Below are positions 3,202 through 27,987 of a DNA stretch of 64,000 bases, piece after piece. The DNA lies in assembly GCA_035473115.1 (NCBI GenBank), contig DATION010000004.1:33126-97125 (forward strand), in the 5' to 3' direction. The notes under the pieces were generated by a model, which saw only the letters and a list, made by a program, of their open reading frames with translations, did not search any database and was not told where the DNA came from. Each line of letters begins with the position of its first letter. Within the stretch, counting starts at the first letter, position 1. The stretch is from Candidatus Udaeobacter sp. GTDB taxonomy: Bacteria; Patescibacteriota; Patescibacteriia; Magasanikbacterales; GWA2-37-8. The translations under genes were made by a program, and so were the position numbers.

Positions 3202-4605
3202 TTAGACTTTGGCTTTTAAAAAGGCAGAACCTACAGCGATAATATCATAGCCTTTATTTTGCAATTTACTGTATTTATCCTGAATCATTCTGCGGCCGTC
3301 CATAATCAAATATGGCGGCGGGCAAACTGCCAGAATTTCTTCGTCTGCCAAACGAAACTGCGCCCAATCTGTCAAAATTAAACAGGCATGACTACCGGTT
3401 AAAGCAGTTTTTTCATTTTCAAAATATTTAATCTTTTCGTAGCGAGGGTCTTTATCTAACTGGAAAAAACTTTTAAACATTGTTATTGCCGCCGGATCAT
3501 AAATTCTAATTTCTTTAACGTTAGAATTAATCAGATGTTTAACTATATCTATAGCCGGTGAGTTTCTCACGTCATTTGTATTTTGTTTAAAAGCTACTCC
3601 TAAAATCGCAGCCACTTTTCCATCCCAAGAAAAACCAGCGTCCTTTTCAGCCCGGCTATAAAAATGATCGCGCTGAAACCTGTTTGATTCCAGAGAAAGT
3701 CTGACTTGGTGGGTGCTAGCACCGGCTTCTTCAAGCTGATGCGCCAAAGACGCGGCGTCTTTTATAAAGCAGCTGCCGCCAGCATAAACACTGTCATAAA
3801 GACCCCAAGTGCCAATGCGCGGCTCGGTATTAAGTATCTGTCTGACATTTTCAAAATTTATACTTGGAAAAAATTCGCAAAGCCTGCCAACCACATCGAA
3901 GGTAGTGGTTAACTTGTTAAATAGAATATAATTAGCCAATAACTTTCCGGCTGCCGCTTCATAAGAATTAGTTTCTATATATTTTATATTGGTCGAAGAA
4001 AACCTGGAATATACCTGACGCATGATTTTAAAATCTTTTTCTTTTTCCGCGCCAACCAGCACTCTGTCCGGCCTGATAGAACCTTCAATAGCTTTGCCTT
4101 CCACCAAAAATTCCGGATTGGAAACTACACCAAAATTTAAAACGCCATGCTCGTTCATGATCTTTTCTGCCATGCTTATCATATTTATCGGTACAGTGCT
4201 TTTATTGACAATAACAACATACTTGCTTTGCTGACCGCCATTTCTTTGCGCTAAATGTTCCGCCAATTTATTGGCCGCGTTATAATAATAAGACAAATCA
4301 GACTCCCCTTCCGCCCCCTCTTTTTCCGGAGTCGGCAGACACATAAATACCGCATCAATATCATCTAATGCTCGGGAAACAACCTTGTAATCATGGGTAA
4401 AAATTATTCTTTCTTTGTTATTTAATAATAATTTACAAAGACCATCTTCAAGCAAACAGGATTCGATCTCTTCTACATTATTTGAAGCCAACATTTTAAT
4501 TTTTCTTTCATCGACATCATATACTAAAACATCATGGCCGGAATCAGCCATTACCGCCGCGGAACAAGTACCTACATAGCCTGAACCTATATATAAAAGC
4601 TTCAT
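3202..4605 (-). CDS. nucleotide-sugar 6-dehydrogenase (UDP-glucose/GDP-mannose dehydrogenase family)
   Basis: MKLLYIGSGYVGTCSAAV N-terminus and the catalytic-Cys motif AGGSCFIKDA. Length is 467 aa. Confidence 0.8.
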   Translation of the reverse strand: MKLLYIGSGYVGTCSAAVMADSGHDVLVYDVDERKIKMLASNNVEEIESCLLEDGLCKLLLNNKERIIFTHDYKVVSRALDDIDAVFMCLPTPEKEGAEGESDLSYYYNAANKLAEHLAQRNGGQQSKYVVIVNKSTVPINMISMAEKIMNEHGVLNFGVVSNPEFLVEGKAIEGSIRPDRVLVGAEKEKDFKIMRQVYSRFSSTNIKYIETNSYEAAAGKLLANYILFNKLTTTFDVVGRLCEFFPSINFENVRQILNTEPRIGTWGLYDSVYAGGSCFIKDAASLAHQLEEAGASTHQVRLSLESNRFQRDHFYSRAEKDAGFSWDGKVAAILGVAFKQNTNDVRNSPAIDIVKHLINSNVKEIRIYDPAAITMFKSFFQLDKDPRYEKIKYFENEKTALTGSHACLILTDWAQFRLADEEILAVCPPPYLIMDGRRMIQDKYSKLQNKGYDIIAVGSAFLKAKV

Positions 4606-4608
4606 AAA

Positions 4609-5463
4609 CTACATTTTAAAAATATTTATACTTAGCGCCAGATACATTCTTAACTTAATACCGAGCCAAATTACTGAATTTATAAAAAAATTATGTCGAA
4701 AATGTTTTTTATAATACAGCCACATGGATTCATAGAAATTTATCAATGATTTTACTCGGCGCTTACCGCTGCTTTGTCCGCCAAAATGGATAATTTTCGC
4801 TTCACTAACATACACCGTTTTCCAGCCTTTATCAAGCACTCTTTTGCAAAAATCCAAGTCTTCTCCGTACATAAAAAAAATCTCATCAAACCCGCCATTT
4901 TCCTGATAAACTTGCCTGCGAAACATCATAGCGGCTCCGGAGAGCGCCTCGGTCGGACCAGTAATTTCCGGGTCAGTTGCATACTGTTTATAACTGTTTA
5001 TAAATTTATTATTTTTAAAAATCTTAGTCAACCCAAACAGGTGAAAAAATGAATTAATCGGATTTGGTAGCATGCGGCGGCAAGCGTGCTGAAAAGTTAA
5101 GTCTTTATTTAATAATCTTGGGCCAACCATCATTGTGTCTGAGTTCTGATCCAAGTAGTTTACGAGTTTGTTTAAAGCACCATCTAAAACCACAACATCA
5201 GTATTTAAAAACATCAAATAATCACCCTTGGCTATTTTTAATCCTTGATTATTGGCTTTGCCAAAACCTAAATTATCTTTATTTTCTATTAACACTACTT
5301 GTGGAAAATCTTTTTTAATCATTGCTACACTACTATCAGCAGAGTTGTTGTCAGCCACAATCACTTCAAAATCTATTCCGGAAGTTTCTTTATAAACCGA
5401 AGCTAAAGCCTGTTTGGTCAGGTCGCATGTATTCCAATTAACAAAAATTATCGATAATTTCAT
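4609..5463 (-). CDS. family 2 glycosyltransferase
   Basis: LSIIFVNWNTCDLT...VADNNSADSS shows the GT-A fold DxD-type signatures. Length is 284 aa. Confidence 0.75.
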   Translation of the reverse strand: MKLSIIFVNWNTCDLTKQALASVYKETSGIDFEVIVADNNSADSSVAMIKKDFPQVVLIENKDNLGFGKANNQGLKIAKGDYLMFLNTDVVVLDGALNKLVNYLDQNSDTMMVGPRLLNKDLTFQHACRRMLPNPINSFFHLFGLTKIFKNNKFINSYKQYATDPEITGPTEALSGAAMMFRRQVYQENGGFDEIFFMYGEDLDFCKRVLDKGWKTVYVSEAKIIHFGGQSSGKRRVKSLINFYESMWLYYKKHFRHNFFINSVIWLGIKLRMYLALSINIFKM

Positions 5464-6464
5464 ATTTCAAATTTTATTTTACCAGTTTTTCTTTCATAAA
5501 CTCCAACTGGCCAGCCACACATCTTTGCCAAATCACCATACAAGATAATCAGTGGCAAAAAAATATAGCCGGTAATTATTTTTAAAAAAGATATATTTTT
5601 TGAAAAAACATGCCATCTGCGCCAAAATTTAACCAGATAGTCGAGCCATAAGCCTAATAAAATTACTCCAAACCACAGGCTTATACTACATGATAAAAAT
5701 AATAAAATTATGTTTAACAAATAAAAAGTATATCTTATTGTTTGACGTTTAAACCACAGCTTGCCATGACCATCGCTTCTGGTATAGCCAAACAATTGCT
5801 TAAAATATTTTTGTAAAGTCTTTCTTGGCTGCCAAAAAACCAACGGCTCTCGGATATATTCTGTTTTTATTCCTAATTTAAATATTTTCAGATCAAAAAT
5901 AACATCTTCGCACAAAGGAATCCATTCCGGATAACCGCCAGCTTTTTGCCAAACTTCTTTTTTAAAGGCAACCGAACGGCTGGAAGGCAGCCAATCTTTC
6001 TCAAATTCCGCCGGCGCAGGTGTGGTAGCCGCGGCTACCAGATATGGCAAAAAACTATCATCCGACTTAAACCAAGGACCAAAACCGGTAGCTGTAAAAA
6101 TACTTTTACCGGACAAAATCGGATCGGTAATTTTTCTAAACCAATTAATATCATAGGTACAACCCGCATCAGTAACAACAATTATCTCTCCTACGGCTTT
6201 GCCAATTGCAAAATTCCTGCCAGCCGAAATATTGCCGAGGTGTTGCCAAACTTTTAGCAAACTGTTTTGCTTGCTTTTTTCTAGCAAAGCTTCCCATGTA
6301 CCGTCTTTAGAACCGCCATCCACGATAACTATTTCTTCCGGTAAAACTGTCTGGGATAAAATACTATCCAACCAGTCGGAAAGATTATTTTTTTCATTTA
6401 ATACGGTTGTGATTAAAGAAATCATGAAAAATAAAATTATCTCTAACCATGGACTATTTCCCAA
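5460..6464 (-). CDS. family 2 glycosyltransferase with C-terminal membrane anchor
   Basis: ITTVLNEKNNLSDWLDSILSQT...IVIVDGGSKDGT GT2 core followed by two C-terminal TM helices. ATGA overlap with the downstream gene. Confidence 0.7.
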   Translation of the reverse strand: MGNSPWLEIILFFMISLITTVLNEKNNLSDWLDSILSQTVLPEEIVIVDGGSKDGTWEALLEKSKQNSLLKVWQHLGNISAGRNFAIGKAVGEIIVVTDAGCTYDINWFRKITDPILSGKSIFTATGFGPWFKSDDSFLPYLVAAATTPAPAEFEKDWLPSSRSVAFKKEVWQKAGGYPEWIPLCEDVIFDLKIFKLGIKTEYIREPLVFWQPRKTLQKYFKQLFGYTRSDGHGKLWFKRQTIRYTFYLLNIILLFLSCSISLWFGVILLGLWLDYLVKFWRRWHVFSKNISFLKIITGYIFLPLIILYGDLAKMCGWPVGVYERKTGKIKFEI

Positions 6465-6925
6465 GAATAGGGAATTTTTTTAGACAAAGGATCAAGACGG
6501 GTAATTTCATTTTTATCGTGCGGCAAAGTGGCGCAATTAGCAACAATCACCGGCTCTGCGCTTATACATTTAAAGCCATTCCAGACCATTGGCGGCACTT
6601 TTACCAAAAGCCTATTATCTTCGCCGATAAATATTTCCATCAGATTACCTTTTGTCGAGCTTTCTTTGCGATCATCGTATAGAACTAACTTTGCCATTCC
6701 AACCACCACGCTGTACATTAAAGTCATTTCTTTATGCAAATGCCAAGCTTTAACTACGCCAGGATTAGCTTTAGAAAAATATATCTCTCCAAATTTTTCA
6801 AAAATGGGGTCATCATTGCGCAACATATGATAAATAGCTCCGCGCTCATCGGGAATAACCGAAATATTTTTTACTTCAACCCCTTGAATTGGACCGCCTT
6901 TAATGCCAAAAATTGTGTCTGCCAT
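6443..6925 (-). CDS. WxcM/FdtA-like cupin (putative NDP-4-keto-6-deoxyhexose 3,4-ketoisomerase)
   Basis: 160 aa. An HxH-containing cupin core (KAWHLHKEMTLMY) resembles FdtA/WxcM C-terminal domains. An RmlC-like alternative is not excluded. Confidence 0.45.
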   Translation of the reverse strand: MADTIFGIKGGPIQGVEVKNISVIPDERGAIYHMLRNDDPIFEKFGEIYFSKANPGVVKAWHLHKEMTLMYSVVVGMAKLVLYDDRKESSTKGNLMEIFIGEDNRLLVKVPPMVWNGFKCISAEPVIVANCATLPHDKNEITRLDPLSKKIPYSWEIVHG

Positions 6926-6928
6926 ACT

Positions 6929-7864
6929 TTATAACTTGCTAATATAAAAATCTAATGTTTTTCGTAATCCCTCTTCTATGTCCGTTTTTGCAACCCAGCC
7001 AAGATCTTTTTTTGCCTTCTTAACAGCGCAAGAAACATAAAAAACTTCATTGGTTGAATAGGGTTTATCATAGCTTACCAGGTCATAAATTGCAAGCTGA
7101 TTTTCTAAAATTTTAACGATATTTTTAATAGATACGGCCTTTTTTTGGCCAATATTGAAAACCTCGCAGCCCGGCTTAACTGAGAGACAGCGCTCGATCG
7201 CCAACATAAAAGCAGCGGCCACATCGCTAACATAAGTAAAATTCCATTGCTGCTCGGATGGTGTTAATTGTATTTTTTGTTTTTTTAATAAATTATTTAT
7301 TAGATAAGAAAAAAGTTTTTCATTATCTTTTGGACCATAGGTTGAAAAAAGTCTGAGGTGTATGCAGCTGAAACCAAACCACTGTGCGTAATCTTTCAGC
7401 ATGTCGTGTAGAATTAATTTTGTACGAGCGTATAAATTATACGGTTTAAGCGCCGACTTCTCCGACAATTCTTTATTACCGCTTAAGTCGTATTCAAAAA
7501 AACTGCCGGCAGTAACAATTGAACGAACATTATGCTGGCGCATCGTCTCTAAAAGCATGTTCGGAAAGACAACGTTTGCTTCCATTAACTCCTCTGCCTC
7601 AGTAACCGAACTATGCTGTTTTAAATACTTGGCCGCCAAATGAACAACGCAATCAATTTTTTGCTCTAAAAATATTTTTTCAATATCTTCTTTTTTGTCT
7701 CCGTATGTTTTTAAATGTGAATCAGAAAGCAAATGTTTAATACGCCAAAGATCTGATTGCGGACGAATTACGGCGCAGACATTATAACCCGACTTTAAAG
7801 CCTGCCCCAAAACATGCGAACCGATAAATCCGCTCGCTCCGGTAAGTAAAATGGTTTTTCCCAT
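6929..7864 (-). CDS. NAD-dependent epimerase/dehydratase family protein
   Basis: MGKTILLTGASGFIGSHVLGQAL Rossmann N-terminus and YxxxK (YARTK). Length is 311 aa. Confidence 0.7.
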   Translation of the reverse strand: MGKTILLTGASGFIGSHVLGQALKSGYNVCAVIRPQSDLWRIKHLLSDSHLKTYGDKKEDIEKIFLEQKIDCVVHLAAKYLKQHSSVTEAEELMEANVVFPNMLLETMRQHNVRSIVTAGSFFEYDLSGNKELSEKSALKPYNLYARTKLILHDMLKDYAQWFGFSCIHLRLFSTYGPKDNEKLFSYLINNLLKKQKIQLTPSEQQWNFTYVSDVAAAFMLAIERCLSVKPGCEVFNIGQKKAVSIKNIVKILENQLAIYDLVSYDKPYSTNEVFYVSCAVKKAKKDLGWVAKTDIEEGLRKTLDFYISKL

Positions 7865-7866
7865 AT

Positions 7867-8766
7867 TTATGGCAATATATTTTTTAATCTTTTAATCAAT
7901 AAACTCATCGGACCTAATAATTTTACTTCAAAGATCATAACATATTTTTTCCAGCCCGAATAATGTTTATTGATAAACAAAACCAAACTATCCAAAGTGA
8001 TTTTTAATCGGCGTTTATCATATTTAGTTTTAAAGCTGCCCCCATAAACATGCATCACCGGGTCGGAATTTATAACCACGCATTTCCAATTATCTTTGCG
8101 CAAGCGCAAACAAAGATCCGTATCTTCAAAGTACATATAAAAATCCTCCGACATCAAACCGACTTTATCCAGCGCTTTCTTACGCAAAAGAATGGCCGCT
8201 CCGGTAACATAATCCAATTCAATACCTCCATCTGGTATAGCTTGAGGAAAAAGACCTATCAATTTAAGTTTGCGCCGAACAGCGGCCGGAAGCAATTTAG
8301 TAATCGGCAATAAGTAAAGAAATACATTTAAAGGTGTAGGAAAAAAGCCTCCGACCGATTGCCAAGACCTGTCCGGGTAAACCAATTGTGGACCGACAGC
8401 GCCAACTTCGGGGTGCAGCTCTATAAATTGATACAATTGCTCCATACTGTGAGCACCGGTTTCGGTATCGCTGCTTAACAGCCAGACATATGGCTCGGTG
8501 GCAAATTCACGAATAGCTCGGTTATTTGAACCGGCATAACCCAGATCTTTCTCATTTACAACATATTCTGCCTGAGGGAAAGCTGCTCGCAGAGCTTCAA
8601 CTGTTCCATCATTGGAATTATTATCAATCACAATCACCTGTTTTGGCAGCGAAGCTGCCGCGTATAAGGCCGCCAAAGCTTTGAGAGCAAAATCTTTTGT
8701 TTTATAAGTGGTAATGATGGCCGAAACCGGCAAAATATTTTTTTCCATACTGGCACTATTAAACAA
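7867..8766 (-). CDS. family 2 glycosyltransferase (tandem paralogue 1)
   Basis: VSAIITTYKTKD...VIVIDNNSNDGT GT2 signatures. Same length and order of motifs as the neighbouring gene. Confidence 0.7.
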   Translation of the reverse strand: MFNSASMEKNILPVSAIITTYKTKDFALKALAALYAAASLPKQVIVIDNNSNDGTVEALRAAFPQAEYVVNEKDLGYAGSNNRAIREFATEPYVWLLSSDTETGAHSMEQLYQFIELHPEVGAVGPQLVYPDRSWQSVGGFFPTPLNVFLYLLPITKLLPAAVRRKLKLIGLFPQAIPDGGIELDYVTGAAILLRKKALDKVGLMSEDFYMYFEDTDLCLRLRKDNWKCVVINSDPVMHVYGGSFKTKYDKRRLKITLDSLVLFINKHYSGWKKYVMIFEVKLLGPMSLLIKRLKNILP

Positions 8767-9648: not shown

Positions 9649-11892
9649 CTATTTATTGGTTAATAAGTAAACACTATATTTATAATTATAGCTCTGCCTG
9701 CCAATTATTTTTTGTTTTAATTTTAATAAAATCGGATCGGTAGGCACAGACTGATGCTGATCTATTATTTTAAAACCTTCAGGAATTTTATCTGCCGCAG
9801 CCATTGAATCATAGGCACTATCACCGTCCGAACCGGTAGAGAAAAACCATACTCTTAGATCTCTTTTCTTGCCTTCTAATAAGTTCGGCAATTTATCAAG
9901 CGGAATTGCTGTTAATTTGCCAAAGTACTTATCTTTATAAAAATTATAATTACCAATATTCATATCACCGTTGATAATCAGATAATCATTGGCCTTAGAA
10001 TTATTTTGCACAAATTGATACTCTGTAAAATCATTAAAATAACTGCCATTAAAATAATTTTGCCTCTGATAAAAATTAAATAGCCCGGCTGCCTGAACCA
10101 AGATTAACATTAGCATGATTAAATACTTATAAAAACCTTTTATTTCAAAAGTTAAACGAGTGATTAAAATAATAAACAAAGGAAAAGCCACAAAGACATA
10201 CTTCGGATACACTATAAAATTATATCTCGGGTCAGCATGATTTAAAAAAATTACATTTAAAATAACCGACATTAAAAACAAATAAAATAATAAGTAAAAT
10301 TCCAAGTTTTGCTTACAAAGTTTTTTTATTAAAACAAATAATAGAACCACCATCACTAGCGCTCCCGCGATAAACGGCGCAAAGTTCCACGGCAAAATAT
10401 TCTCTCCGAAGAAATAAGCGTAAAAATGCATTAAAAAGTCGGCCGCTAAATTAATAAATGACTTCCCCAGCAAACTAGCTTTTTCAAAACCTTTATCATT
10501 TTGGATAAATATTCTTAAGTAAAATAGATAAATGATCGGCAAAAAAGATACTGCCACTCCGGCTTGGCCAGCAAGCCATTTTGACAAGGATAGCACTTTA
10601 TTTTTTGTTAAAAATAAATAAAAATAACAAATATTTATAATAAAAATCAGATAAACAAAATGAGGCAAATCTGTATAACCGACCAAAACACTAAACAATA
10701 AAAATTTAATAAATAATTTTCTCTCATAGCCAACTAGTGCCATCTTGCAAAAATAATATAAGCTTAATAAGGTTAGCAAAGCCGCCAGACTGTGATAACG
10801 AGCCATCTGTGAAATCAGAAGAAAATAGGACGAAATTGAAGTCAAAAACATCCCCCATCTGGCCAAGGCTTTATCTTTAAATAATAACAAAGAAAAATAA
10901 TAAACTGTTACCGTTATGCCTAAACCGGATAACACGGAAACCAACCTGATACCCAATTCACCAAAAGGAAAGATTCTGTACAATAAAATAACTAAAAAAT
11001 AATAAAGCGGCGGATGATTATCCGGAACGCGAAAATATTCGATTAAAAAATTAAGCGGATTTGGGCTATGATACATGTATTCTAAAACTGCTGTTTCATC
11101 CATCCAAAATGTTCTGGAACTTATACGATAAAACAGCAAAATTAAAGATAATGCTATCAACGAAATAAAATAAGTCTTATCTTTGTTGAGCCTAAAATAT
11201 TTAAAAATTCTTAAAAGAGAATACTTAAATAACTGGCCAAAAAATAACATGTACTCCATATAGTTCAATTTGGATGAACTAAATTTTCTTACTCTAAAAT
11301 TATACGGCAACTCTTTAACTTTGGTATAATTTCCTTTTATTAACACCTCTAAAAGGATCTTATAGCCTTTTGTTTTCAAATTAATACCGGAAATAACATT
11401 TTTATTTAGAAAAAAATATCCGCTTAAAGGATCTTTAATTCCGGTAAGTTTGCGAGCAAAAAATACACCAACTTTTGAGACTAATTTTCTCCACCATTTC
11501 CAATCTTCCACGGAACTGCCTTCGCTAAACCTTCCCCCGATCGCGATATTATTATCCAGCAAACTCAAGATAAGATCGTTTAAAATAACCGGATTATGGC
11601 TTAAATCCGCATCCATAACCCCAACGTACGGACGATCAGAAAGTTTAAAACCCTCTCTAACAGCACTGCCAAGGCCCAGCTTACCGGACCGATGAATAAC
11701 TTTTATCGGATAATTTTTCTTTAGCTCTTCCGCCACATTACCGGTGCCGTCGGGCGAATTATCATCCACAATAATAAACTCCAAATCAATCTTTTCTTTA
11801 TTTATAATACCCCAAATCTCTTCAATTAGAATAGAAAGATTTTTTGCTTCGTTATATGTGGGTATAATAAGAGAAATTTTTATCGGCGACAT
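9649..11892 (-). CDS. fusion protein: Dpm1/GtrB-like polyprenyl-phosphate sugar synthase (GT2) + PMT/ArnT-like GT-C membrane glycosyltransferase
   Basis: N-terminal ~230 aa: ISLIIPTYNEAKNL...FIIVDDNSPDGT...VMDADLSH (Dpm1-like). The C-terminal ~500 aa has more than 10 TM helices, with a HPPLYYFLV... segment resembling PMT_2/GT39-83 enzymes. Confidence 0.65.
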   Translation of the reverse strand: MSPIKISLIIPTYNEAKNLSILIEEIWGIINKEKIDLEFIIVDDNSPDGTGNVAEELKKNYPIKVIHRSGKLGLGSAVREGFKLSDRPYVGVMDADLSHNPVILNDLILSLLDNNIAIGGRFSEGSSVEDWKWWRKLVSKVGVFFARKLTGIKDPLSGYFFLNKNVISGINLKTKGYKILLEVLIKGNYTKVKELPYNFRVRKFSSSKLNYMEYMLFFGQLFKYSLLRIFKYFRLNKDKTYFISLIALSLILLFYRISSRTFWMDETAVLEYMYHSPNPLNFLIEYFRVPDNHPPLYYFLVILLYRIFPFGELGIRLVSVLSGLGITVTVYYFSLLLFKDKALARWGMFLTSISSYFLLISQMARYHSLAALLTLLSLYYFCKMALVGYERKLFIKFLLFSVLVGYTDLPHFVYLIFIINICYFYLFLTKNKVLSLSKWLAGQAGVAVSFLPIIYLFYLRIFIQNDKGFEKASLLGKSFINLAADFLMHFYAYFFGENILPWNFAPFIAGALVMVVLLFVLIKKLCKQNLEFYLLFYLFLMSVILNVIFLNHADPRYNFIVYPKYVFVAFPLFIILITRLTFEIKGFYKYLIMLMLILVQAAGLFNFYQRQNYFNGSYFNDFTEYQFVQNNSKANDYLIINGDMNIGNYNFYKDKYFGKLTAIPLDKLPNLLEGKKRDLRVWFFSTGSDGDSAYDSMAAADKIPEGFKIIDQHQSVPTDPILLKLKQKIIGRQSYNYKYSVYLLTNK

Positions 11893-11895
11893 AAA

Positions 11896-13053
11896 CTATT
11901 TAATTTTACTGGCAGCATCCCGGCTCTGCCAAAAATAATTCCAGGCGCAGACCGGATTTTTATTGCAACTATCAATAATAGTAAAAACATGAGCGTATCT
12001 AAGCGTATTTTGCAATAAATACGGCGTGGCCAATAAAATAAAAACAGAAAAAACACTCAAATACTTCCAATAACTTATTCTTTCATACAATTTAAATAAA
12101 CCGTAAGCGGCCAAAGGCAGTAGCAGCCAGGCTGAAATAAATACCGTTCTGGCAATAAACACCGGCCAAGCAAAATATGATAATGCTGTCGGCAAAACAG
12201 CGATAAAATATACCCACACCCCTCTATCAATCATCCTGAGGTTTTTGCATAACAAAACAACTCCTATAAATATAGCTGCCCAAGTTAAATTATAGGTGCT
12301 GGCATTTACTCCAAACCAGCGCAACAATGTATAATTTGCCCCCCAAATTCTCCAGGTTTCGATAAAATAGGATAAAGAAGAAAAACCAACATCAGCGCCG
12401 CGTACAGAATTTACTATTAAGGTAAATAAAGGCAAAGCGGCAAACATTGCTAAATACCCGACAGTTTTTTTCCAATTAATTATTTCTGACAAAATAACTA
12501 TGCCGGCAAACAATGCGCCCATCGCACCTGATTCTTTTGTTAAGATGCCAAAAGCAACCGAGACGCTGCTTAACAGTAACCAGCTATACTTTTTTTGTTC
12601 TCGCCATCTCCAAATAGAATACATTGTCAAAACACACCAGAAATAACCTCCCATATCTTCTACTTGAGTCAGCCCATACCGAACCATGGCATAATTTGTG
12701 ATCGCAAATAGCGCAGTTACAAAACCAATCCATTTATTATTAAAAACCCGAGCAATGAGACTGTAGGTTAATAATAGTAAGCCAAAATAAAAAACTATAT
12801 TGGTAACAATTAAACTGCTAACCGGGGAAAGAAAAAATAAAATTTTAGCGGACACAACCGGATAAAACGGCACGGCATATCGATTCGTAAAAAATAACGG
12901 GATATCATTGCCTCTAAAAAAATTAATCGTATCAATAAAACTATCAGTATCATTATTTGTATGAAAACCAAATAAATAATGAAAAATAACAAGATTTATA
13001 ATTCCCAATGCCAATAGTACCAGGTGTAAATTATATTTTTTAAAAAAATTCAT
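11896..13053 (-). CDS. polytopic membrane protein, candidate GT-C glycosyltransferase or glycan polymerase
   Basis: 386 aa after trimming to the ATG at 13053. A 7-nt gap to the upstream gene avoids a 116-nt overlap. It has 10+ TM helices and no soluble domain. Confidence 0.4.
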   Translation of the reverse strand: MNFFKKYNLHLVLLALGIINLVIFHYLFGFHTNNDTDSFIDTINFFRGNDIPLFFTNRYAVPFYPVVSAKILFFLSPVSSLIVTNIVFYFGLLLLTYSLIARVFNNKWIGFVTALFAITNYAMVRYGLTQVEDMGGYFWCVLTMYSIWRWREQKKYSWLLLSSVSVAFGILTKESGAMGALFAGIVILSEIINWKKTVGYLAMFAALPLFTLIVNSVRGADVGFSSLSYFIETWRIWGANYTLLRWFGVNASTYNLTWAAIFIGVVLLCKNLRMIDRGVWVYFIAVLPTALSYFAWPVFIARTVFISAWLLLPLAAYGLFKLYERISYWKYLSVFSVFILLATPYLLQNTLRYAHVFTIIDSCNKNPVCAWNYFWQSRDAASKIK

Positions 13054-13060
13054 AATAAAA

Positions 13061-13771
13061 CTAAAACGACTTGAAACGCCATTTAAGAATTGTCCATAAT
13101 ACGTATAACCCATCCCGATAACGAATCTTCTTTCCTTCGGCAAAAGTTCTAGGATTATAATGAATCGGAACTTCAACCACTTTTAAACTTTTTCTAAATA
13201 GCTTGCACAATAATTCAACATCATAAGCAAAACCATTAGCTTCAATCGGCAAATCCACCATATATTTACGCGGGATTATTTTATAACAGGCAAAAAAATC
13301 TGTCCCTTTACGCGCATATAATAAATTAATGCTGGCTATGATTAGCTTGTTTCCTAAATATGTAAGCGGATGTGGGTGCGACCAGCCGGTGTGGCTATTT
13401 TTTAATTCATCAGATAAAGTTCTTGAGCCTAAACTGATATCAGCTGTACCTGCCTGTATTGGCGCCAGCATAGCTTTTAAGTCTTGCGGGTCATATTCCA
13501 AATCAGCATCCTGAATAGTAATATAGTCTCCTGTGGCCTGAGCAATCCCCAATTTTACGGAAGCGCCTTTACCGCTATTTTTTTCTTTAAAAATAACTTT
13601 GTACTTATCACCCAGACCGCGCAAAATTTCTCTAGTTCCGTCAGTTGAGCAATCATCCACAATCACAACTTCTTTATCGCAATTATCAAAAATAACCTCG
13701 TCCACTTTTTTAAGTATCTCCAGAATAGTATTTTTTTCATTGTAGGCTGGAATGATAATTGATAATTTCAT
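13061..13771 (-). CDS. family 2 glycosyltransferase, Dpm1/ArnC-like polyprenyl-phosphate sugar synthase
   Basis: MKLSIIIPAYNEKNTILEIL...VVIVDDCSTDGT...IQDADLEYDP. Length is 236 aa. Confidence 0.75.
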   Translation of the reverse strand: MKLSIIIPAYNEKNTILEILKKVDEVIFDNCDKEVVIVDDCSTDGTREILRGLGDKYKVIFKEKNSGKGASVKLGIAQATGDYITIQDADLEYDPQDLKAMLAPIQAGTADISLGSRTLSDELKNSHTGWSHPHPLTYLGNKLIIASINLLYARKGTDFFACYKIIPRKYMVDLPIEANGFAYDVELLCKLFRKSLKVVEVPIHYNPRTFAEGKKIRYRDGLYVLWTILKWRFKSF

Positions 13772-15959: not shown

Positions 15960-18251
15960 CTAAACTAAAATATTTTTCATCCACTTATAAGAGCGGCTTA
16001 AGCCGGCTCGTAAATTAATTGATGGATGGAAATCAACTTGCGACTTGGCTTTAGACAAGTCCGGACAGCGTCTGGAAGGTTCATCCTGCGGATAAGTATC
16101 TGGATAATTAACCAGATTTATTTCAACTTTTTTATCAGTGACAATCTCAGAAACAATTTCTGCCAAAGCTTTCATATTAATTTCTTCATCATCATTGCCG
16201 ATATTAAAGACCTCGCCGTTTTTTTCCGAAAGTAAAACTTTAAAAAATCCAACCATCGCATCGCTGGCATAACAAAAAGTACGGGTTTGGTTTCCTTTAC
16301 CATGAACTGATAACGGCTTGCCTTCAATCGCCTGACTTAAGAATGTCGGCACAACTCTATAGTCTTTGGCGCTCATTCCCGGACCATAAACATTAAAAGG
16401 CCGAACAATTTTTATAGGGGTGTTGTGGACACGGTGATAAGCTGTACCCAAAGTTTCGCCCAAACGCTTTGATTCGTCATAGCAAGAGCGCGGACCGGTA
16501 GAAGAAACATTGCCTCGGTATGTTTCCGGAGTAGGAATGAATTTCGGATCAGGATCTCCGTAAATTTCACTGGAACTAAAATATAAAATACTCTTTACCT
16601 TTTTTTCGAGTCCCAATTTTAACATGTTGCTTAATCCAAAAACCGCTCCTTCTATTGTTTCAATCGGATACCGCATGTAATAAACCGGTGAAGCGATGCC
16701 GGCGGCGGAGATTATATAATCTACCGGAACATCTAAAGTTAGCGGGTCGCAAATATTATGATTCTTAAAAGAAATATAATTACTATCAATTTCTTTTAAG
16801 AGATTATTCTTTTTTCCGATGATATGATTATCTATTGAAAGCACTCGGCAAGGTTCCTTAAAATATCTTTTATTTAACAAATCTATAACTGCGATAAAAT
16901 AACTGCCGATAAAACCGGAACCGCCCGTAATCAAAACACTTTTACCTTCTAACGATTTGGCTACTTCCGCAACTTCTTTGGCGATAAAATCTAGATCACC
17001 TTCCACAATTCCGCTAACCACCTGAGCAAACGGCACTGGAATAATGAAATTCTCAAAATCCGAACATTTCTTAATAATAGAATCGGCAAAATTCCAAGCT
17101 AAAACCAAAATATAATCTGGCGGATTGGCTTTTAATTCTGTGGCTGGCTTAACCGGAATATGCGTTCCCGGAGTATAAAGCCCCTGCTTCCAAACGCTGT
17201 CATCAATAATATAATCGAGTGTTTCTGTGCCAATATTAAAATAATTTAACAAAGTGCTGCCTTTGGCTGGAGCGCCATAACCAACGATTTTCTTTCCTTT
17301 TGATTTTAGTTCGCTTAAAAGTCCAAGCAAACGAGTTTTATTTTCGGCAATTTTAGCTTCAAAACTGGTAAAAGTTTCTATCTCATTAATTTTTTTATTT
17401 TTTTCCTCATTGATAAATCGCTCCACATTAGAACCTAATGGATATTTACCACCTTTTCTTTGTACAAAAACCCTCAATGAGCCACCATGAGTGTCTGTTT
17501 TATCAACATCAAAAACCTGCATACCCAAACGATCAAACAGAGTACTGATTGTTTTTACCGTAAAATACGATAAATGTTCATGGTAAATAGTGTCAAATAA
17601 ATTTTTCTCTACTAGATCCAATAAATAATAGGCTTCAATGACAAAAACACCGTCATCAGCCAACAAATTTTTTACGCCTTCCACCACTTGATCTAAATCA
17701 TCAATATGTGGAAAAACGCTGGTGGCGGTAACTAGCGATGCTTTGCCTTTGGCTTGAACTATTTTGTTGGCTATTTCTGGAGTAAAGTAAGCAGCCATTG
17801 TTTCGATACCGTTTTCGGTTGCTCTGGCCGCAATATTAGCCGCCGGATCAACGCCCATAATTTTAACTCCCATTTCTTTGTATGGCCGAAGCAAAATTCC
17901 ATCATTGCTGCCGATATCAACTACCAGCGAATTACTGTTCAAGCTAAAACGCTGAGCCATTTCGGAAGCAAAAGCTTTAAAATGCGCCACAAAAACAGGT
18001 GATGTTGACGAACTATAAACATAATTGCTAAACAGCAGATCCGGAGAAACAACATGACTAAGCCCAACAAAAGAACAATCCTTACAAAAAGATAATTCCA
18101 AAGGAAAACTATGCTCCGGCTTTTCCAGATCTTCTGGTTTTAAGAAAGCATTGGCCGGAGGCGTACTGCCCAAACTAAGCACTTGGGTTAAATTTTTTCC
18201 TTTACAAACTCGACAAGACTCGCTCTTTTTAAATAAAGATTGATCCGACAT
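15960..18251 (-). CDS. bifunctional fusion: NDP-sugar C-methyltransferase-like (Zn-ribbon + SAM MTase + C-MT C-terminal domain) fused to UDP-glucuronate decarboxylase (UXS)-like SDR
   Basis: 763 aa. N-terminal CRVCKGKNL...CKDC Zn-ribbon and a VVDIGSNDG SAM motif. The C-terminal half has VLITGGSGFIGSYF, YDESKRLGE (UXS/ArnA-type YDExKR) and RPFNVYGPGM. Confidence 0.65.
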   Translation of the reverse strand: MSDQSLFKKSESCRVCKGKNLTQVLSLGSTPPANAFLKPEDLEKPEHSFPLELSFCKDCSFVGLSHVVSPDLLFSNYVYSSSTSPVFVAHFKAFASEMAQRFSLNSNSLVVDIGSNDGILLRPYKEMGVKIMGVDPAANIAARATENGIETMAAYFTPEIANKIVQAKGKASLVTATSVFPHIDDLDQVVEGVKNLLADDGVFVIEAYYLLDLVEKNLFDTIYHEHLSYFTVKTISTLFDRLGMQVFDVDKTDTHGGSLRVFVQRKGGKYPLGSNVERFINEEKNKKINEIETFTSFEAKIAENKTRLLGLLSELKSKGKKIVGYGAPAKGSTLLNYFNIGTETLDYIIDDSVWKQGLYTPGTHIPVKPATELKANPPDYILVLAWNFADSIIKKCSDFENFIIPVPFAQVVSGIVEGDLDFIAKEVAEVAKSLEGKSVLITGGSGFIGSYFIAVIDLLNKRYFKEPCRVLSIDNHIIGKKNNLLKEIDSNYISFKNHNICDPLTLDVPVDYIISAAGIASPVYYMRYPIETIEGAVFGLSNMLKLGLEKKVKSILYFSSSEIYGDPDPKFIPTPETYRGNVSSTGPRSCYDESKRLGETLGTAYHRVHNTPIKIVRPFNVYGPGMSAKDYRVVPTFLSQAIEGKPLSVHGKGNQTRTFCYASDAMVGFFKVLLSEKNGEVFNIGNDDEEINMKALAEIVSEIVTDKKVEINLVNYPDTYPQDEPSRRCPDLSKAKSQVDFHPSINLRAGLSRSYKWMKNILV

Positions 18252-19599: not shown

Positions 19600-20322
19600 T
19601 TAAAGCTGTTGCAAAGCTTTGCTGGCATCATTTATAAATTGTACCACAGTTTCTTTGGTGCGGGCAGAAACAAGGCACTTAGCCAAGACTTCCGGAGGAA
19701 CGGTAAGGATATGAGCTCCGCTTTTTCCCCACAAATCTACATTTTCCGGTGTGCGTACAGAACCGACGATAATTTCTATATTTTTATAATTATGAAAATC
19801 CAACCACTGCCTGACATCTTCGAGAACTTTCTGCGCCTGTTCTACGCCATGCTCTTCGGAAACTCTGCCGGCAAAAATACTGATAAAATGAGTCTTTCTG
19901 ACACTTGTCTTAGCCAAACCGGCATTAATGGCTTTGGCTGCCAAGATTGCCTGATTAAAGGTCATCATTGCGGTAACATTGACCGAAATCCCTTCACTTA
20001 CCAATCGGTTAATAACCGGCAAAAGCGATCCGCCGTTTCTGTCTGTAATAGTAACCTTTACGGAAATATTATCGGCCCAAGCATTATATTTTCTGGCTTG
20101 AGTAAAAATTTCATCGGCATTATCTGTAGTTACCTCTACGCTTAAAGGCTGCGGTGCGATCAGACGGGCAATTTCTATAGATCTTTGCTTCATACCTTCT
20201 TCACCGCCGGTAACGCCAGATTTTAAACAAATAGTAGGATTGGTAGTAACTCCGTCGCAAATTCCCCACCCTAAGTATTTTTCCACTTCTTTGGTTTCGG
20301 CACTGTCGATAAATATTTTCAT
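19600..20322 (-). CDS. tal: transaldolase (Tal/FSA short subfamily)
   Basis: MKIFIDSAETKEVEKYLGWGICDGVTTNPT... with the Schiff-base Lys context VKVTI. Length is 240 aa. Confidence 0.75.
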   Translation of the reverse strand: MKIFIDSAETKEVEKYLGWGICDGVTTNPTICLKSGVTGGEEGMKQRSIEIARLIAPQPLSVEVTTDNADEIFTQARKYNAWADNISVKVTITDRNGGSLLPVINRLVSEGISVNVTAMMTFNQAILAAKAINAGLAKTSVRKTHFISIFAGRVSEEHGVEQAQKVLEDVRQWLDFHNYKNIEIIVGSVRTPENVDLWGKSGAHILTVPPEVLAKCLVSARTKETVVQFINDASKALQQL

Positions 20323-20391
20323 AGGATATGTAAGTAAAAACTAAATAATATGTAATGGTACGATAGGCTGTATCAATAAAACTGTCAAGAA

Positions 20392-21129
20392 TTAATCCTG
20401 TACTGTGGATTTTATTTTTTTCAAATACTCTTCTACTTCTTTATATTTATCAATTGTGTCAATTCCCTTAGTGTAGTCTTTGCATTCATAACTATAGAAT
20501 TTTTTACCCTTACTTACCACATCAGGCAAGAGCTGTTTACCAAGCTCATAAAAAGTATTGTCCGGAACATAATCTAAAATCTCTTTTTTTAAAACAAATA
20601 CGCCTTTCATGCGGTAAGCGTTTGGATATGTTTGACTATGCGGCTTGGCATGTATTTTAAGATAACTGCCGTCGGCGGCCAATTCAGCCACATCTGCATC
20701 AGCGTAATCATCTGTTTTTTGCATTCTTTGCATACCAATCGCGTCCGGATGTTTAGTAAATTCTGCGATCATCTGAGAATAATCCATCAGACTTAGCATA
20801 TCGCCATAGATAAGAAAAAAATATTTATCCAGCATGTCAGAAAAATTTTTCACCCCACCAGCTGTACCCAAAATTTCTTTCTCCTGAAAATAATTTATTT
20901 TTACACCCCACTTAGCTCCATCGCCAAAATAATCTCGGATAACATCCGGCAAATAATAAAGATTTATAAAAAATTCGGTCACGCCATGTTTTTTAAATTG
21001 TTCTATATTCCACTCCAATAGAGGTTTGCCCAACAAAGGTATCATTGGTTTTGGCATGGTGTCGGTAATCGGTCGCAAACGTGTACCCAGACCAGCGCAA
21101 AGTATTACTGCTTGTTTTATGTTAGGCAT
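20392..21129 (-). CDS. hddC: sugar-1-phosphate nucleotidyltransferase, D-glycero-D-manno-heptose 1-phosphate guanylyltransferase-like
   Basis: AVILCAGLGTRLRPITDTMPKPM N-terminal NTP_transferase motif. Length is 245 aa. It sits in an operon with gmhB, gmhA and hddA. Confidence 0.6.
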   Translation of the reverse strand: MPNIKQAVILCAGLGTRLRPITDTMPKPMIPLLGKPLLEWNIEQFKKHGVTEFFINLYYLPDVIRDYFGDGAKWGVKINYFQEKEILGTAGGVKNFSDMLDKYFFLIYGDMLSLMDYSQMIAEFTKHPDAIGMQRMQKTDDYADADVAELAADGSYLKIHAKPHSQTYPNAYRMKGVFVLKKEILDYVPDNTFYELGKQLLPDVVSKGKKFYSYECKDYTKGIDTIDKYKEVEEYLKKIKSTVQD

Positions 21130-21135
21130 ATATTA

Positions 21136-21747
21136 TTAAAAATTATTGGCTGCAACTACTTTAGCCATTTGCAATAAATTTTTTACAGTAAAATCAGGTT
21201 TAATGTCTTTGTATTTTTCATCGAGACGCGCATGGCCTGGACCGGTTTTTACTAAAATTGTTTTCAATCCGGCTTTCTTGCCAGCCACCACATCTATCAA
21301 AGCATCTCCGACCATAAAACTTTTTTTCGGATTTATATTTAATTTTTTTAACCCTTTTAAAATCATTCCCGGTCTTGGCTTACGACAATGGCAACGCAAA
21401 CGATATTTTGGCATGGTTGCTTCCGGATGATGCGGACAAAAATATATGGCGTCTACTTTAGCGCCTTTACCGCCTAATCTTTCGATTAAAACCGCATGAA
21501 TATTATCAATCTCTTTTGGCCCGACAATTCCCCGTGCCACCACCGGCTGATTGGTAACTACAACTACCAAAAAACCTAATTTATTTAACAGACCAATAGC
21601 CTGTGCCGCGCCAGGAAGTAATTTCAACTCTTCTACTGAATGCATCAGTTCTACCTGTTTAATTATAGTGCCGTCTCTATCCAAAAAAACAGCCTTGCGG
21701 CCGGACTTAAGCTTTTTTTTTGGCTTTATTGACCTAGTAGCAATCAT
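21136..21747 (-). CDS. gmhB: D,D-heptose 1,7-bisphosphate phosphatase (HAD superfamily)
   Basis: Start trimmed to the ATG at 21747, which forms an ATGA overlap with the gmhA stop. VFLDRDGT HAD motif I and a CPHHPEATMPKYRLRCHCRKP zinc-binding loop typical of GmhB. Confidence 0.75.
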   Translation of the reverse strand: MIATRSIKPKKKLKSGRKAVFLDRDGTIIKQVELMHSVEELKLLPGAAQAIGLLNKLGFLVVVVTNQPVVARGIVGPKEIDNIHAVLIERLGGKGAKVDAIYFCPHHPEATMPKYRLRCHCRKPRPGMILKGLKKLNINPKKSFMVGDALIDVVAGKKAGLKTILVKTGPGHARLDEKYKDIKPDFTVKNLLQMAKVVAANNF

Positions 21748-22313
21748 AATCGCGCCAGCAAATTTATCAATAAATGATTGACTACCAATTGATAATCTTC
21801 GGTATGAGGAGTTACCATAGTTTCTTCTACTGTCGGCACTACCAAACAAGCATCAGCGATTTGAGCAGCCACACCACTAGATCTGCCAACTACTGCCAAA
21901 ATTCTGGCTCCCACAACTTTGGCATATTCCATAGCTTTCACTAAATTACCGGAAATATTTTGCGTGCCGCCGTTGACTGAAAAAATAAACAGGCAATCTT
22001 TGGCGGTAAGGTTATGCATTTCTAACTGTCGTTTAAAAACCGAATCCCAACCCTCGTCGTTTGCTAAAGCAGAAAATAAACCAACATTATCACTCAAACA
22101 AAAAGTAGAAATTTTAGCAATTTTATTAAAATCATTAGTCGCATGTGAAGCTGATGAGCCGCCTCCGCCTATACCCAAAAAGAATACTCTGCCTTTTAAC
22201 TCCCTGGTAATAGCTAAAATATCAGCCATCTTTTCTAAATGCTCACGACTACATTCATTGGCGATTTGAGCTGTTCTTTTTAGATATTGATCAATAAATT
22301 GATGCTTATCCAT
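21744..22313 (-). CDS. gmhA: phosphoheptose (sedoheptulose-7-phosphate) isomerase, SIS domain
   Basis: 189 aa. VFFLGIGGGGSSASHATNDF...SVNGGTQNI SIS-domain signatures of GmhA. Confidence 0.8.
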   Translation of the reverse strand: MDKHQFIDQYLKRTAQIANECSREHLEKMADILAITRELKGRVFFLGIGGGGSSASHATNDFNKIAKISTFCLSDNVGLFSALANDEGWDSVFKRQLEMHNLTAKDCLFIFSVNGGTQNISGNLVKAMEYAKVVGARILAVVGRSSGVAAQIADACLVVPTVEETMVTPHTEDYQLVVNHLLINLLARL

Positions 22314-27000: not shown

Positions 27001-27987
27001 TTAAAAATCAACCATTGTTTTTGCGCCTTCCAGTTCAAATCTAAACGACATCTCTCTCAAACCATTTTCTTTCATAGCTTCCCGTATTCCCTTTTTATCA
27101 CTCGGACAATAAAATAACAAAAATCCGCCGCCGCCAGCTCCCATAATCTTACCGCCCAGTGCGCCGCGTTCTTTAGCCAAAGAATAAAGCATATCTATCT
27201 TTGGATCAGACATTTTGGTTGACATTGTCTTTTTTACCCGCCAATGTTCATCCATCAAGCGGCCAAAATTATCCAGATTTCCCTGCTCAATAGAATTTTT
27301 AATTTCCAAACCAATATCTTTTATCTGCAGTAAAGATTTGGTCACATCGCTCTGCTCTGTTTTGGCGGCAGCGCTCTGTTCTCCCAAAATACTCATGGCA
27401 TCACGAGAAATACCGGTATAAAATATCATTAATTTGCTTTGCAATTCTTCTACTGTCTCACGCGCCACAGCAGCATTAGAAACCTTTACCGCGCCATTTT
27501 TATCTATATCCATTATAGTAAACCCGCCAAATGCAGCCAAATATTGATCTTGTTTGCCTACCGGCTTGTGCAACAAATCAATCTCAATATGACAAGCTTC
27601 TTCAGCTAATTCTTGCACGCCGGAACCTTTGCGCGTTAAAGTTTGCAGACCTTTTAAAAGACCAACCAAATACGAACCTGATGAACCCATGCCAGTGCCT
27701 TCGGGTACATCAGCCATAGATATAATTTCGATACTGTCTTTTATCCCATAATATTCCAAAGCGGCCTTGGCCAATTGATGCTGAACTTGAGCCACATTTT
27801 CGACAATCTCTGTTCGAGAATATTTAATACGCACTAAAGAATCTATGACCGGCCGATTAATGGCCACATACATATACTTATCAATGGCTGCGCTAAACAA
27901 GAAACCTCCATGTTGGCTATAAAAATTTGGCAGGTCAGTACCGCCGCCGCCAAGTGGAATTCTAAATGGTGTTCGGGTAAAAATCAT
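27001..27987 (-). CDS. hddA: GHMP-family sugar kinase, D-glycero-alpha-D-manno-heptose 7-phosphate kinase-like
   Basis: 328 aa. PFRIPLGGGGTDLP and GMGSSGS GHMP motifs. It sits next to the gmhA/gmhB/hddC operon. Confidence 0.65.
   Translation of the reverse strand: MIFTRTPFRIPLGGGGTDLPNFYSQHGGFLFSAAIDKYMYVAINRPVIDSLVRIKYSRTEIVENVAQVQHQLAKAALEYYGIKDSIEIISMADVPEGTGMGSSGSYLVGLLKGLQTLTRKGSGVQELAEEACHIEIDLLHKPVGKQDQYLAAFGGFTIMDIDKNGAVKVSNAAVARETVEELQSKLMIFYTGISRDAMSILGEQSAAAKTEQSDVTKSLLQIKDIGLEIKNSIEQGNLDNFGRLMDEHWRVKKTMSTKMSDPKIDMLYSLAKERGALGGKIMGAGGGGFLLFYCPSDKKGIREAMKENGLREMSFRFELEGAKTMVDF

Follow-up and report, generated by a model that had tools for sequence, protein, structure and literature searches.

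A Dpm1-like sugar-lipid synthase joined to a GT-C membrane protein: a predicted two-sided enzyme in a bacterial glycan locus

Can a single polypeptide both make a lipid-linked sugar on the inner face of a membrane and use it on the outer face? In the standard picture a lipid-sugar synthase, a flippase and a GT-C transferase are three separate proteins, and the route by which monosaccharide-phosphate lipids cross the membrane is still unsettled. The question is raised by a 64,000-nucleotide (nt) stretch of contig DATION010000004.1 (hereafter the window), in which the open reading frame (ORF) at 9649–11892 joins a soluble family 2 glycosyltransferase (GT2) to a polytopic membrane domain. A first-pass annotation, made from the sequence alone, had read this 747-amino-acid (aa) ORF as a Dpm1-like synthase with DxD signatures followed by more than ten transmembrane (TM) helices of PMT/ArnT-like GT-C character, and had suggested that it both makes and consumes a lipid-linked monosaccharide. 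We followed up that reading computationally, and all functional claims below are drawn from sequence and predicted structure. We conclude that the fusion is probably a bifunctional, two-sided enzyme, which would make a polyprenyl-phosphate hexose inside the cell and transfer the sugar outside.

The fused gene and its two halves

ORF coordinates and Pfam matches bore out the order of a soluble GT2 domain and then a membrane domain (Table 1). PF00535 (Glycos_transf_2) matched residues 7–135 (E 9e-26) and PF13231 (PMT_2) residues 292–455 (E 1.4e-6, 29.0 bits with a gathering score of 26.1), and an AlphaFold model of the full-length fusion reached a mean predicted local distance difference test score (pLDDT) of 93.5 and a predicted template-modelling score (pTM) of 0.87. 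An identical 747-aa protein is public at NCBI as HSR89207.1 under the label 'glycosyltransferase'. We found about 50 fused homologs in total, from independent assemblies and with matches far stronger than chance would give: a first group of about 30 full-length proteins (720–750 aa, 47–72% identity) and a second of about 20 (712–722 aa, about 32% identical to the fusion). The window derives from a metagenome-assembled contig, and one relative (locus L007) has a masked run of N precisely at the junction, so a sequencing or assembly error that merged two genes into one long ORF deserves consideration. However, fused ORFs of the same length and with the same junction recur in dozens of independent metagenome assemblies of differing origin, including those of three GTDB species representatives in which the ORF is unbroken (L004, L005 and L006; 62–65% identity). 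The junction sequence is kept across fused homologs, and the junction region offers neither a methionine nor another plausible start upstream of TM1 from which the GT-C part could be translated separately. Because fused homologs recur in independent assemblies, the sequence evidence indicates that the fusion is a real gene and not an artefact, which we regard as highly improbable. The first-pass annotation had named a stop codon between the two halves as one ground for giving up its reading, and the unbroken ORFs of these relatives speak indirectly against one.

Table 1 Features of the fused gene and of its neighbours in the window
Feature	Position	Strand	Basis or remark
Whole fused gene: GT2 synthase, GT-C transferase (predicted) and C-terminal domain	9649..11892	(-)	ATG start, 747 aa, TAG stop
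GT-A-fold catalytic domain, residues 1-210, Dpm1/DPMS type, predicted cytoplasmic	11263..11892	(-)	PF00535, PfDPMS match
DADLSH motif, residues 94-99	11596..11613	(-)	Counterpart of PfDPMS 89-DADLQH-94; by homology, binds metal, diphosphate and sugar
Putative polyprenyl-phosphate-binding residues R121, R135, S139 (PfDPMS R117, R131, S135)	11476..11532	(-)	Homology; S139 lies in interface helix 1
Interface helix 2 and short linker into TM1, residues 211-236	11185..11262	(-)	AlphaFold helices 211-235, 237-254
GT-C membrane domain, residues 237-608, 11 predicted spans, N-in/C-out	10069..11184	(-)	PF13231, GT-C-only model, positive-inside rule
D265-E266 acidic motif, first extracytoplasmic loop	11095..11100	(-)	Putative catalytic/donor-binding; just past TM1, predicted outer face
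D291-N-H293-P-P motif, end of first outer loop	11008..11022	(-)	Alignment conservation
C-terminal alpha/beta domain, residues 609-747, predicted extracytoplasmic	9652..10068	(-)	AlphaFold strands/helices 616-746
Second GT-C-like membrane protein, 385 aa, candidate user of pair 2	11896..13053	(-)	PMT_2 E 5.7e-7, PMT E 3e-6
Second Dpm1-like GT2, 236 aa, candidate donor synthase of pair 2	13061..13771	(-)	PF00535 E 2e-35
Wzx-type flippase	31012-32346
Wzy_C/O-antigen-ligase-like protein with TPR repeats	44400-46454

The GT2 half lies closest to the dolichol-phosphate mannose synthase (DPMS) of Pyrococcus furiosus (PfDPMS). A sequence search with residues 1–224 matched PfDPMS (5mlz) with E 1.4e-50 and 176 bits, whereas GtrB and ArnC reached only 33–40 bits; the PfDPMS catalytic domain is 45.2% identical to the GT2 half over 219 aligned residues, and a Foldseek search of the PDB returned 5mlz as the best match (E 4.9e-19), with the PfDPMS entries 5mlz, 9ep0 and 5mm1 ahead of ArnC and GtrB. 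The DxD signature is present as D94-A95-D96 (11605–11613). We took the roles of PfDPMS residues in binding nucleotide, metal, mannose and the phosphate of dolichol phosphate (Dol-P) from PMC5526996 and found that 12 of the 15 functional residues checked (E15, D43, D44, D94, D96, H99, R121, R135, S139, K178, R202 and K208) are identical in the fusion and essentially invariant in 49 fused homologs, the other three being replaced (Q93 by S98, G122 by S126 and F177 by Y177). D94, D96 and H99 are invariant in this set. The acceptor-phosphate site R117/R131/S135 is conserved in bona fide DPMSs (PMC5526996), and its counterparts R121 and R135 are kept in 49/49 and S139 in 48/49 of the fused homologs. 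AlphaFold helices 133–150 and 211–235 fall at the positions of the PfDPMS interface helices IFH1 and IFH2, and the GT2 half itself does not span the membrane. According to the literature, removal of the TM domain leaves PfDPMS fully active and still targeted to membranes, so that a catalytic domain with two interface helices should suffice. We infer from this strong homology that the GT2 half belongs to the Dpm1 branch and serves as a polyprenyl-phosphate hexose synthase.

The donor sugar would most probably be mannose, taken from GDP-mannose. Three observations leave this assignment uncertain: the metal ligand Q93 of PfDPMS is replaced by S98 in 47 of the 49 fused homologs; neither half reaches equivalog level in NCBIfam, the fusion scoring far below the curated cut-off of every equivalog; and genes resembling a heptose pathway lie in the same island. 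One of the two Dpm1-like synthases of the locus might instead draw on a heptose carried by GDP. The heptose-like set comprises a transaldolase, a guanylyltransferase-like nucleotidyltransferase, a GmhB-like phosphatase, a GmhA-like SIS isomerase and an HddA-like GHMP kinase (19600–22313 and 27001–27987); these genes, which recall the GDP-D-glycero-D-manno-heptose pathway, all score below the NCBIfam cut-offs. The glutamine of DADLQH is also present in GtrB (DADLQD), unlike the serine of the fused family.

For the membrane half we built a separate AlphaFold model of residues 237–747 with 56 stand-alone homologs as alignment (pLDDT 92.7, pTM 0.93). The first 39 Foldseek matches of this model in the PDB were all GT-C enzymes, among them ALG12 (TM-score 0.60), ArnT (5f15, 0.53), PglB, Pmt4, ALG9, STT3, DPY19, AftA/AftB/Emb, PimE and ALG3. 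On this model the membrane half has the GT-C fold, and by its Pfam match it is a member of PMT_2; to that extent its PMT/ArnT-like character stood up. It has no demonstrable membership of GT39 (PMT) or GT83 (ArnT), because a profile of its homologs matches no solved chain and the similarity is confined to the fold: ArnT shows no detectable sequence relationship at 10% identity, and the PMT family model PF02366, which some relatives do carry, did not match the fusion. Pfam also found no MIR domain in the fusion, whose largest outer loop spans 40–57 residues. A large MIR-bearing luminal loop is a feature of eukaryotic PMTs that some bacterial PMTs do not have, which makes it a weak test.

We assigned topology from the AlphaFold helices together with charge counts over a 102-sequence alignment. 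This gave 11 spans between residues 237 and 608, in line with the more than ten helices first reported, and an N-in orientation in which the five inside loops carry net charges of +1.4, +0.9, +2.3, +2.7 and +2.0 and the outside loops −1.0, +0.8 (a single conserved arginine, R365), −0.8, −1.8 and +0.3. Counting all AlphaFold helices gives 12 spans and a cytoplasmic C-terminal domain, which we rejected as it breaks the positive-inside rule. Helix 296–307 (the HPP helix), at only 12 residues, was likewise rejected as a membrane span; it corresponds to the second juxtamembrane helix of GT-C enzymes such as ArnT. A plain Kyte–Doolittle scan gave ambiguous, overlapping segments. The model predicts that D265/E266, D291/H293, R365, the 40-residue loop 464–503 and the C-terminal domain lie outside and the GT2 domain inside, an arrangement that, as modelled, is canonical for GT-C enzymes. 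The conserved loop motifs thus fall on the outer face in the positive-inside analysis. The first-pass annotation had singled out a missing acidic motif in a periplasmic loop as a reason to abandon its reading of the fusion; we looked for this motif and found it in D265-E266, which is near-invariant among 102 fused and stand-alone homologs and predicted to face outwards. D291, H293 and P295 are invariant, and P294 nearly so, in the alignment of stand-alone and fused proteins, and the near-invariant positions shared by both forms further include W263, R316, R365, D408, E497, W502, R556 and Y557. The C-terminal domain has no Pfam match. Its conserved residues are rich in aromatics (N615, Y618, Y649, Y652, Y656, W682 and D719), and it is a possible acceptor-binding domain.

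Fused and split pairs among relatives

Stand-alone GT-C proteins of 512–528 aa make up about half of the close family. In L012/L001 a 230-aa GT2, 57% identical to residues 4–231 of the fusion, stops 2 nt before a 516-aa GT-C gene, and the genes downstream of the split pair are the same as in the window. Two further loci (L008 and L010) have true stop codons and overlapping starts at the junction position. In split orthologs the stop codon falls in the region of interface helix 2 and the linker (residues 211–236), and the stand-alone GT2 orthologs are 230-aa proteins without TM helices. The two genes can also lie apart, by about 2 kb in L009 and with a methyltransferase gene between them in L002 (4359–7491). 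L007 had been taken as a 65%-identical split ortholog and was dropped from this comparison, since its junction is the masked run of N.

We built a neighbour-joining tree on the GT-C part of 97 sequences, 49 fused and 48 split. Fitch parsimony required at least 12 changes between the fused and split states on this tree (11–13 in 15 column resamples), a number that gene-calling or assembly errors may have inflated somewhat. The distance from K208 to W263 is 46–56 residues in 47 of the 49 fused proteins, and this short spacing means that interface helix 2 enters TM1 almost directly. The frequent switches in these sequences indicate that the separate proteins already function as a pair, and the separate GT2 and GT-C proteins probably form a physical complex.

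A second donor/user pair, encoded immediately beside the fusion, follows the same pattern. Both neighbours proved to be what the first-pass annotation had claimed, a stand-alone GT2 and a polytopic membrane protein, as judged by their Pfam matches and by a match of the GT2 to PfDPMS, its best solved relative (E 9e-21, residues 1–231). The second GT2 shares just 25% identity with its counterpart in the fusion. In the window the two genes of the second pair are separated by a 7-nt gap, and they are likewise split in L005; in L004 (3294–5186), L006 (5414–7306) and L007 (about 5400–7260) the pair forms a single uninterrupted reading frame of about 625 aa. Its GT-C part has a conserved NNDTDS motif that follows TM1. 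The suggestion that the locus holds two donor/user pairs is therefore strongly supported, with the first pair split in relatives and the second fused in three of them. Since each pair occurs both fused and split among close relatives, the sequences provide strong Rosetta-stone evidence that each synthase would work with its adjacent GT-C protein.

Proposed mechanism and competing explanations

In the mechanism that we favour, the cytoplasmic GT2 domain would load a hexose onto polyprenyl phosphate, in a bacterium presumably undecaprenyl phosphate, at the inner leaflet. The glycolipid would then move to the outer leaflet, through either a protein encoded elsewhere or the membrane domain itself; a flip of this kind has to be invoked because the two predicted active sites face opposite sides of the membrane. 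At the outward site the GT-C domain may bind the flipped glycolipid through D265/E266, D291/H293, R365 and other conserved loop residues and pass the single sugar to an acceptor, as suggested by fold, motifs and topology. The acceptor would most likely be the glycan that the surrounding Wzx/Wzy-type island builds for the cell surface, with a protein, either secreted or surface-bound, as the alternative. The aromatic-rich C-terminal domain would probably assist in binding the acceptor. The fusion would thus add one side-chain sugar to an exported surface glycan in the manner of the Gtr, Gac and CsbB/YfhO systems. By analogy with these, side-chain addition is the most economical reading, with protein O-glycosylation as a second possibility. 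Because the predicted N terminus of the GT-C domain is cytoplasmic, a cytoplasmic domain could be attached to it without a change of topology, and because the GT2 half has no spans, the GT-C domain would double as its membrane anchor. The covalent link would fix a 1:1 ratio and hold carrier lipid, synthase and consumer together. We envisage the fusion as an easily reached and roughly equivalent state, which could arise by loss of a stop codon between overlapping, translationally coupled genes.

Several points weigh against this bifunctional reading. The PMT_2 score exceeds its threshold by just 3 bits, identity to the structural GT-C matches is just 9–18%, and a profile of 57 homologs of the GT-C part, run against all PDB chains, returned nothing at E ≤ 1. 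The many switches between fused and split forms could also mean that fusion confers no advantage. Finally, two hidden Markov models (HMMs), together with Pfam searches of small membrane ORFs, found no GtrA-type (PF04138-like) ORF in the 64-kb window. We had built these two HMMs separately from the GtrA segments of GT2–GtrA–PMT_2 triple fusions (described below), and when applied to the Magasanikbacteria loci the same HMMs found no GtrA either. The second HMM does pick up a gtrA gene in a Paceibacterota locus (L011), next to an orthologous GT2. There, at 7588–8693, the 135-aa GtrA gene (PF04138, E 8.7e-20) overlaps the start of the stand-alone GT2, which is 60% identical; there is no adjacent GT-C gene, and a Bac_transf initiating transferase and a Wzx-like flippase lie nearby. 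The first-pass proposal of a self-contained module that makes and consumes its lipid-linked sugar therefore held only in part: residues for both activities are present, and the flip step lacks a flippase of this type in the window.

Three other accounts of the protein have to be weighed. The membrane domain might be only an anchor, which tethers, activates or stabilises the synthase and is no transferase for its sugar, leaving other enzymes, such as the second GT-C protein, to consume it. Membrane partners of this kind exist in DPM3 for human DPM1 and in domain D1/Ppm2 for mycobacterial Ppm1. A pure anchor would suit both the absence of TM helices from the GT2 half and its 230-aa stand-alone orthologs and the marginal PMT_2 score, and there is precedent in Mycobacterium tuberculosis, whose PPM synthase is joined to a membrane protein with no consumer role; in M. 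smegmatis the two are split and interact (PMC3485146). However, an anchor alone would not be expected to keep D265, E266, D291, H293, R365, D408, E497, W502 and R556 near-invariant on the predicted outer face, nor does it explain why the fold is that of a complete GT-C enzyme, why 139 extracytoplasmic residues form a conserved domain, or why two different GT2s each have their own GT-C protein. We consider this account unlikely, and the least likely of the three.

The other two accept that both halves are active. In one, they serve one pathway and became joined by accidental loss of a stop codon, with neither channelling nor a complex between them, which fits the at least 12 switches in 97 sequences, the overlap of split genes by a few nucleotides, such that a single small mutation joins them, and the retention of both states in close relatives. 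Against such a neutral origin stand the short, length-constrained linker, the full-length pTM, which suggests a defined relative arrangement of the halves, and the emergence of the same architecture in distant lineages. We think this account unlikely; it differs from the bifunctional reading only on why the fusion exists, not on what the protein does. In the other, the protein would be a complete make–flip–use machine, in which its own membrane domain or the junction of IFH2 and TM1 carries the glycolipid to the GT-C site. A 2026 paper proposes that the GtrA-like TM domain of PfDPMS flips dolichol-phosphate mannose (PMC12992685), and it is this very domain that the fusion lacks. We hold this bolder account to be similarly improbable. 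If it were true, synthesis, translocation and transfer would all take place within one polypeptide, and polyprenyl-phosphate sugar synthases would generally act in physical complexes with their cognate GT-C enzymes. The bifunctional enzyme with a separate or intrinsic flip step remains the reading that we prefer.

Known relatives, genomic setting and significance

The closest functional parallels are the three-component systems: GtrA/GtrB/GtrX of Shigella phages, CsbB/GtcA/YfhO and GtlA/GtlB of Bacillus and Listeria, GacI/GacL of streptococci and ArnC/ArnE-F/ArnT. In these a polyprenyl-phosphate monosaccharide comes from a cytoplasmic GT2 and is spent outside the membrane by a GT-C enzyme, which decorates a pre-made polymer with it; the fusion shares both the logic and the two catalytic folds. 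Their genes are usually adjacent (PMC7389260, PMC5836110, PMC11127046, PMC7117936), a layout that the split orthologs of the fusion share. In contrast, the fusion is one polypeptide, its GT2 is of the Dpm1/DPMS branch rather than the GtrB/ArnC branch, and its 64 kb contain no GtrA. The type-III DPMS of P. furiosus (5mlz, 5mm1, 9ep0) resembles it in the catalytic domain, in the donor, metal and Dol-P sites and in the two interface helices; where PfDPMS has a four-helix GtrA-like TM domain, which may flip its product (PMC12992685), the fusion has an 11-span GT-C domain. M. tuberculosis Ppm1 (Rv2051c) also pairs a Dpm1-like synthase with a polytopic protein, fused or as adjacent, interacting partners in relatives (PMC3485146), but there the membrane domain sits at the N terminus, crosses the membrane six times and does not consume the product as a GT-C enzyme, whereas that of the fusion is C-terminal and predicted to do so. 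Among GT-C enzymes, ALG12 (GT22), ArnT (GT83) and Pmt1/2/4 (GT39) share with it the fold, the N-in orientation and an acidic motif in the first outer loop, and ArnT additionally a C-terminal extracytoplasmic alpha/beta domain; the fusion is only 10–13% identical to them, shows no profile match, and has no counterpart of the MIR domain of PMTs.

We searched 1.84 billion cluster representatives exhaustively. The whole of the close fused family fell into one cluster at 50% identity (P0007), and the GT2 plus PMT_2 architecture also occurs in many other clusters, distant lineages included: P0099, P0101, P0137, P0119, P0174, P0176 and P0205. One of these clusters, P0119, sits among heptosyltransferase genes. 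Triple fusions that run GT2–GtrA/DPMS TM domain–PMT_2 form clusters P0170 and P0250 (P0244 has the order GtrA–GT2–GT-C-like), and one lies at 4001–6730 of locus L014. Like the fusion, they carry an N-terminal Dpm1-like GT2 and a C-terminal PMT_2 GT-C domain on one chain; they differ in the GtrA/DPMS TM domain in the middle, in about 30% identity in the GT2 part and in their Gram-negative contexts. Members of the P0250 family (860–930 aa) turn up in Acidihalobacter species, Nitrosomonas eutropha and Nitrosovibrio, whose genomes are complete, and in metagenome-assembled genomes (MAGs) of Nitrosospira, Thiotrichales and Planctomycetota. Their annotations go no further than 'glycosyltransferase family 39 protein' or 'dolichol-phosphate mannosyltransferase'. 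The architecture is thus already in databases under generic names and is not new there. In the open-access full-text literature we found no description of a Dpm1-like GT2::GT-C fusion and no experiments on the triple fusions, although non-open papers may contain some; in the promising papers, 'fused' referred to cloning or to other proteins. The expectation that the two activities are usually separate proteins accordingly holds for the studied systems and fails for sequence databases, in which fused forms are common. In other lineages the same Dpm1-like GT2 is joined to class-I methyltransferase domains (P0087, P0096, P0104–P0115, including a Woesearchaeota protein); these fusions, with the methyltransferase gene of L002, hint at methylated lipid-linked sugars or at modular shuffling of the three activities.

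The operon that contains the fusion is closely packed on the minus strand, with −22 to +17 nt between neighbouring genes, and belongs to a large glycan island (about 4.6–35 kb) that encodes at least nine other glycosyltransferases, sugar-nucleotide dehydrogenases, epimerases and an aminotransferase. The same operon contains a 763-aa ORF (15960–18251) in which a sugar C-methyltransferase (Methyltransf_13/14/23) is fused to an NAD-dependent 4,6-dehydratase/epimerase. Two membrane proteins are possible polymerase or flippase candidates: a 494-aa protein of about eight spans within the island (33127–34611), with no Pfam or NCBIfam match, and a 127-aa ORF of about three spans (1464–1844), with no Pfam match. 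The G+C content of the window is 32–45%. The minus strand carries almost all long ORFs. Each 2-kb bin has a negative GC skew, and the cumulative skew falls steadily to −5.1. The window lies wholly on one replichore with a very strong gene-strand bias. Its NCBI label, Candidatus Udaeobacter (Verrucomicrobiota), conflicts with its G+C content, with its synteny and with its proteins, which resemble those of Magasanikbacteria/Patescibacteria MAGs (73% identity for FtsW, 46–79% for the glycosyltransferase cluster), and the contig is probably mis-binned under that label. Loci L004, L005 and L007 are labelled 'uncultured Gammaproteobacteria', and synteny and 46–79% identity tie them, too, to Magasanikbacteria/Patescibacteria.

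To our knowledge, the envelopes of Patescibacteria are almost unstudied, and the locus points to glycosylation of a surface glycan or of proteins in these bacteria. If the joining of two known enzymes proved to be neutral, the finding would amount to an improvement on the annotation 'glycosyltransferase'. The membrane domain would also represent a fourth mode of anchoring a Dpm1-type synthase, beside DPMS types I–III. As a compact single-chain system without a GtrA domain, the fusion could be used to ask whether flipping needs a separate protein. The two pairs in one operon, each found fused and split and the first with at least 12 switches on its tree, offer natural Rosetta-stone evidence for a synthase–transferase unit. 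The main value of the finding lies in this evidence for coupling of synthase and transferase and in a compact test system for the passage of lipid-linked sugars across the membrane.

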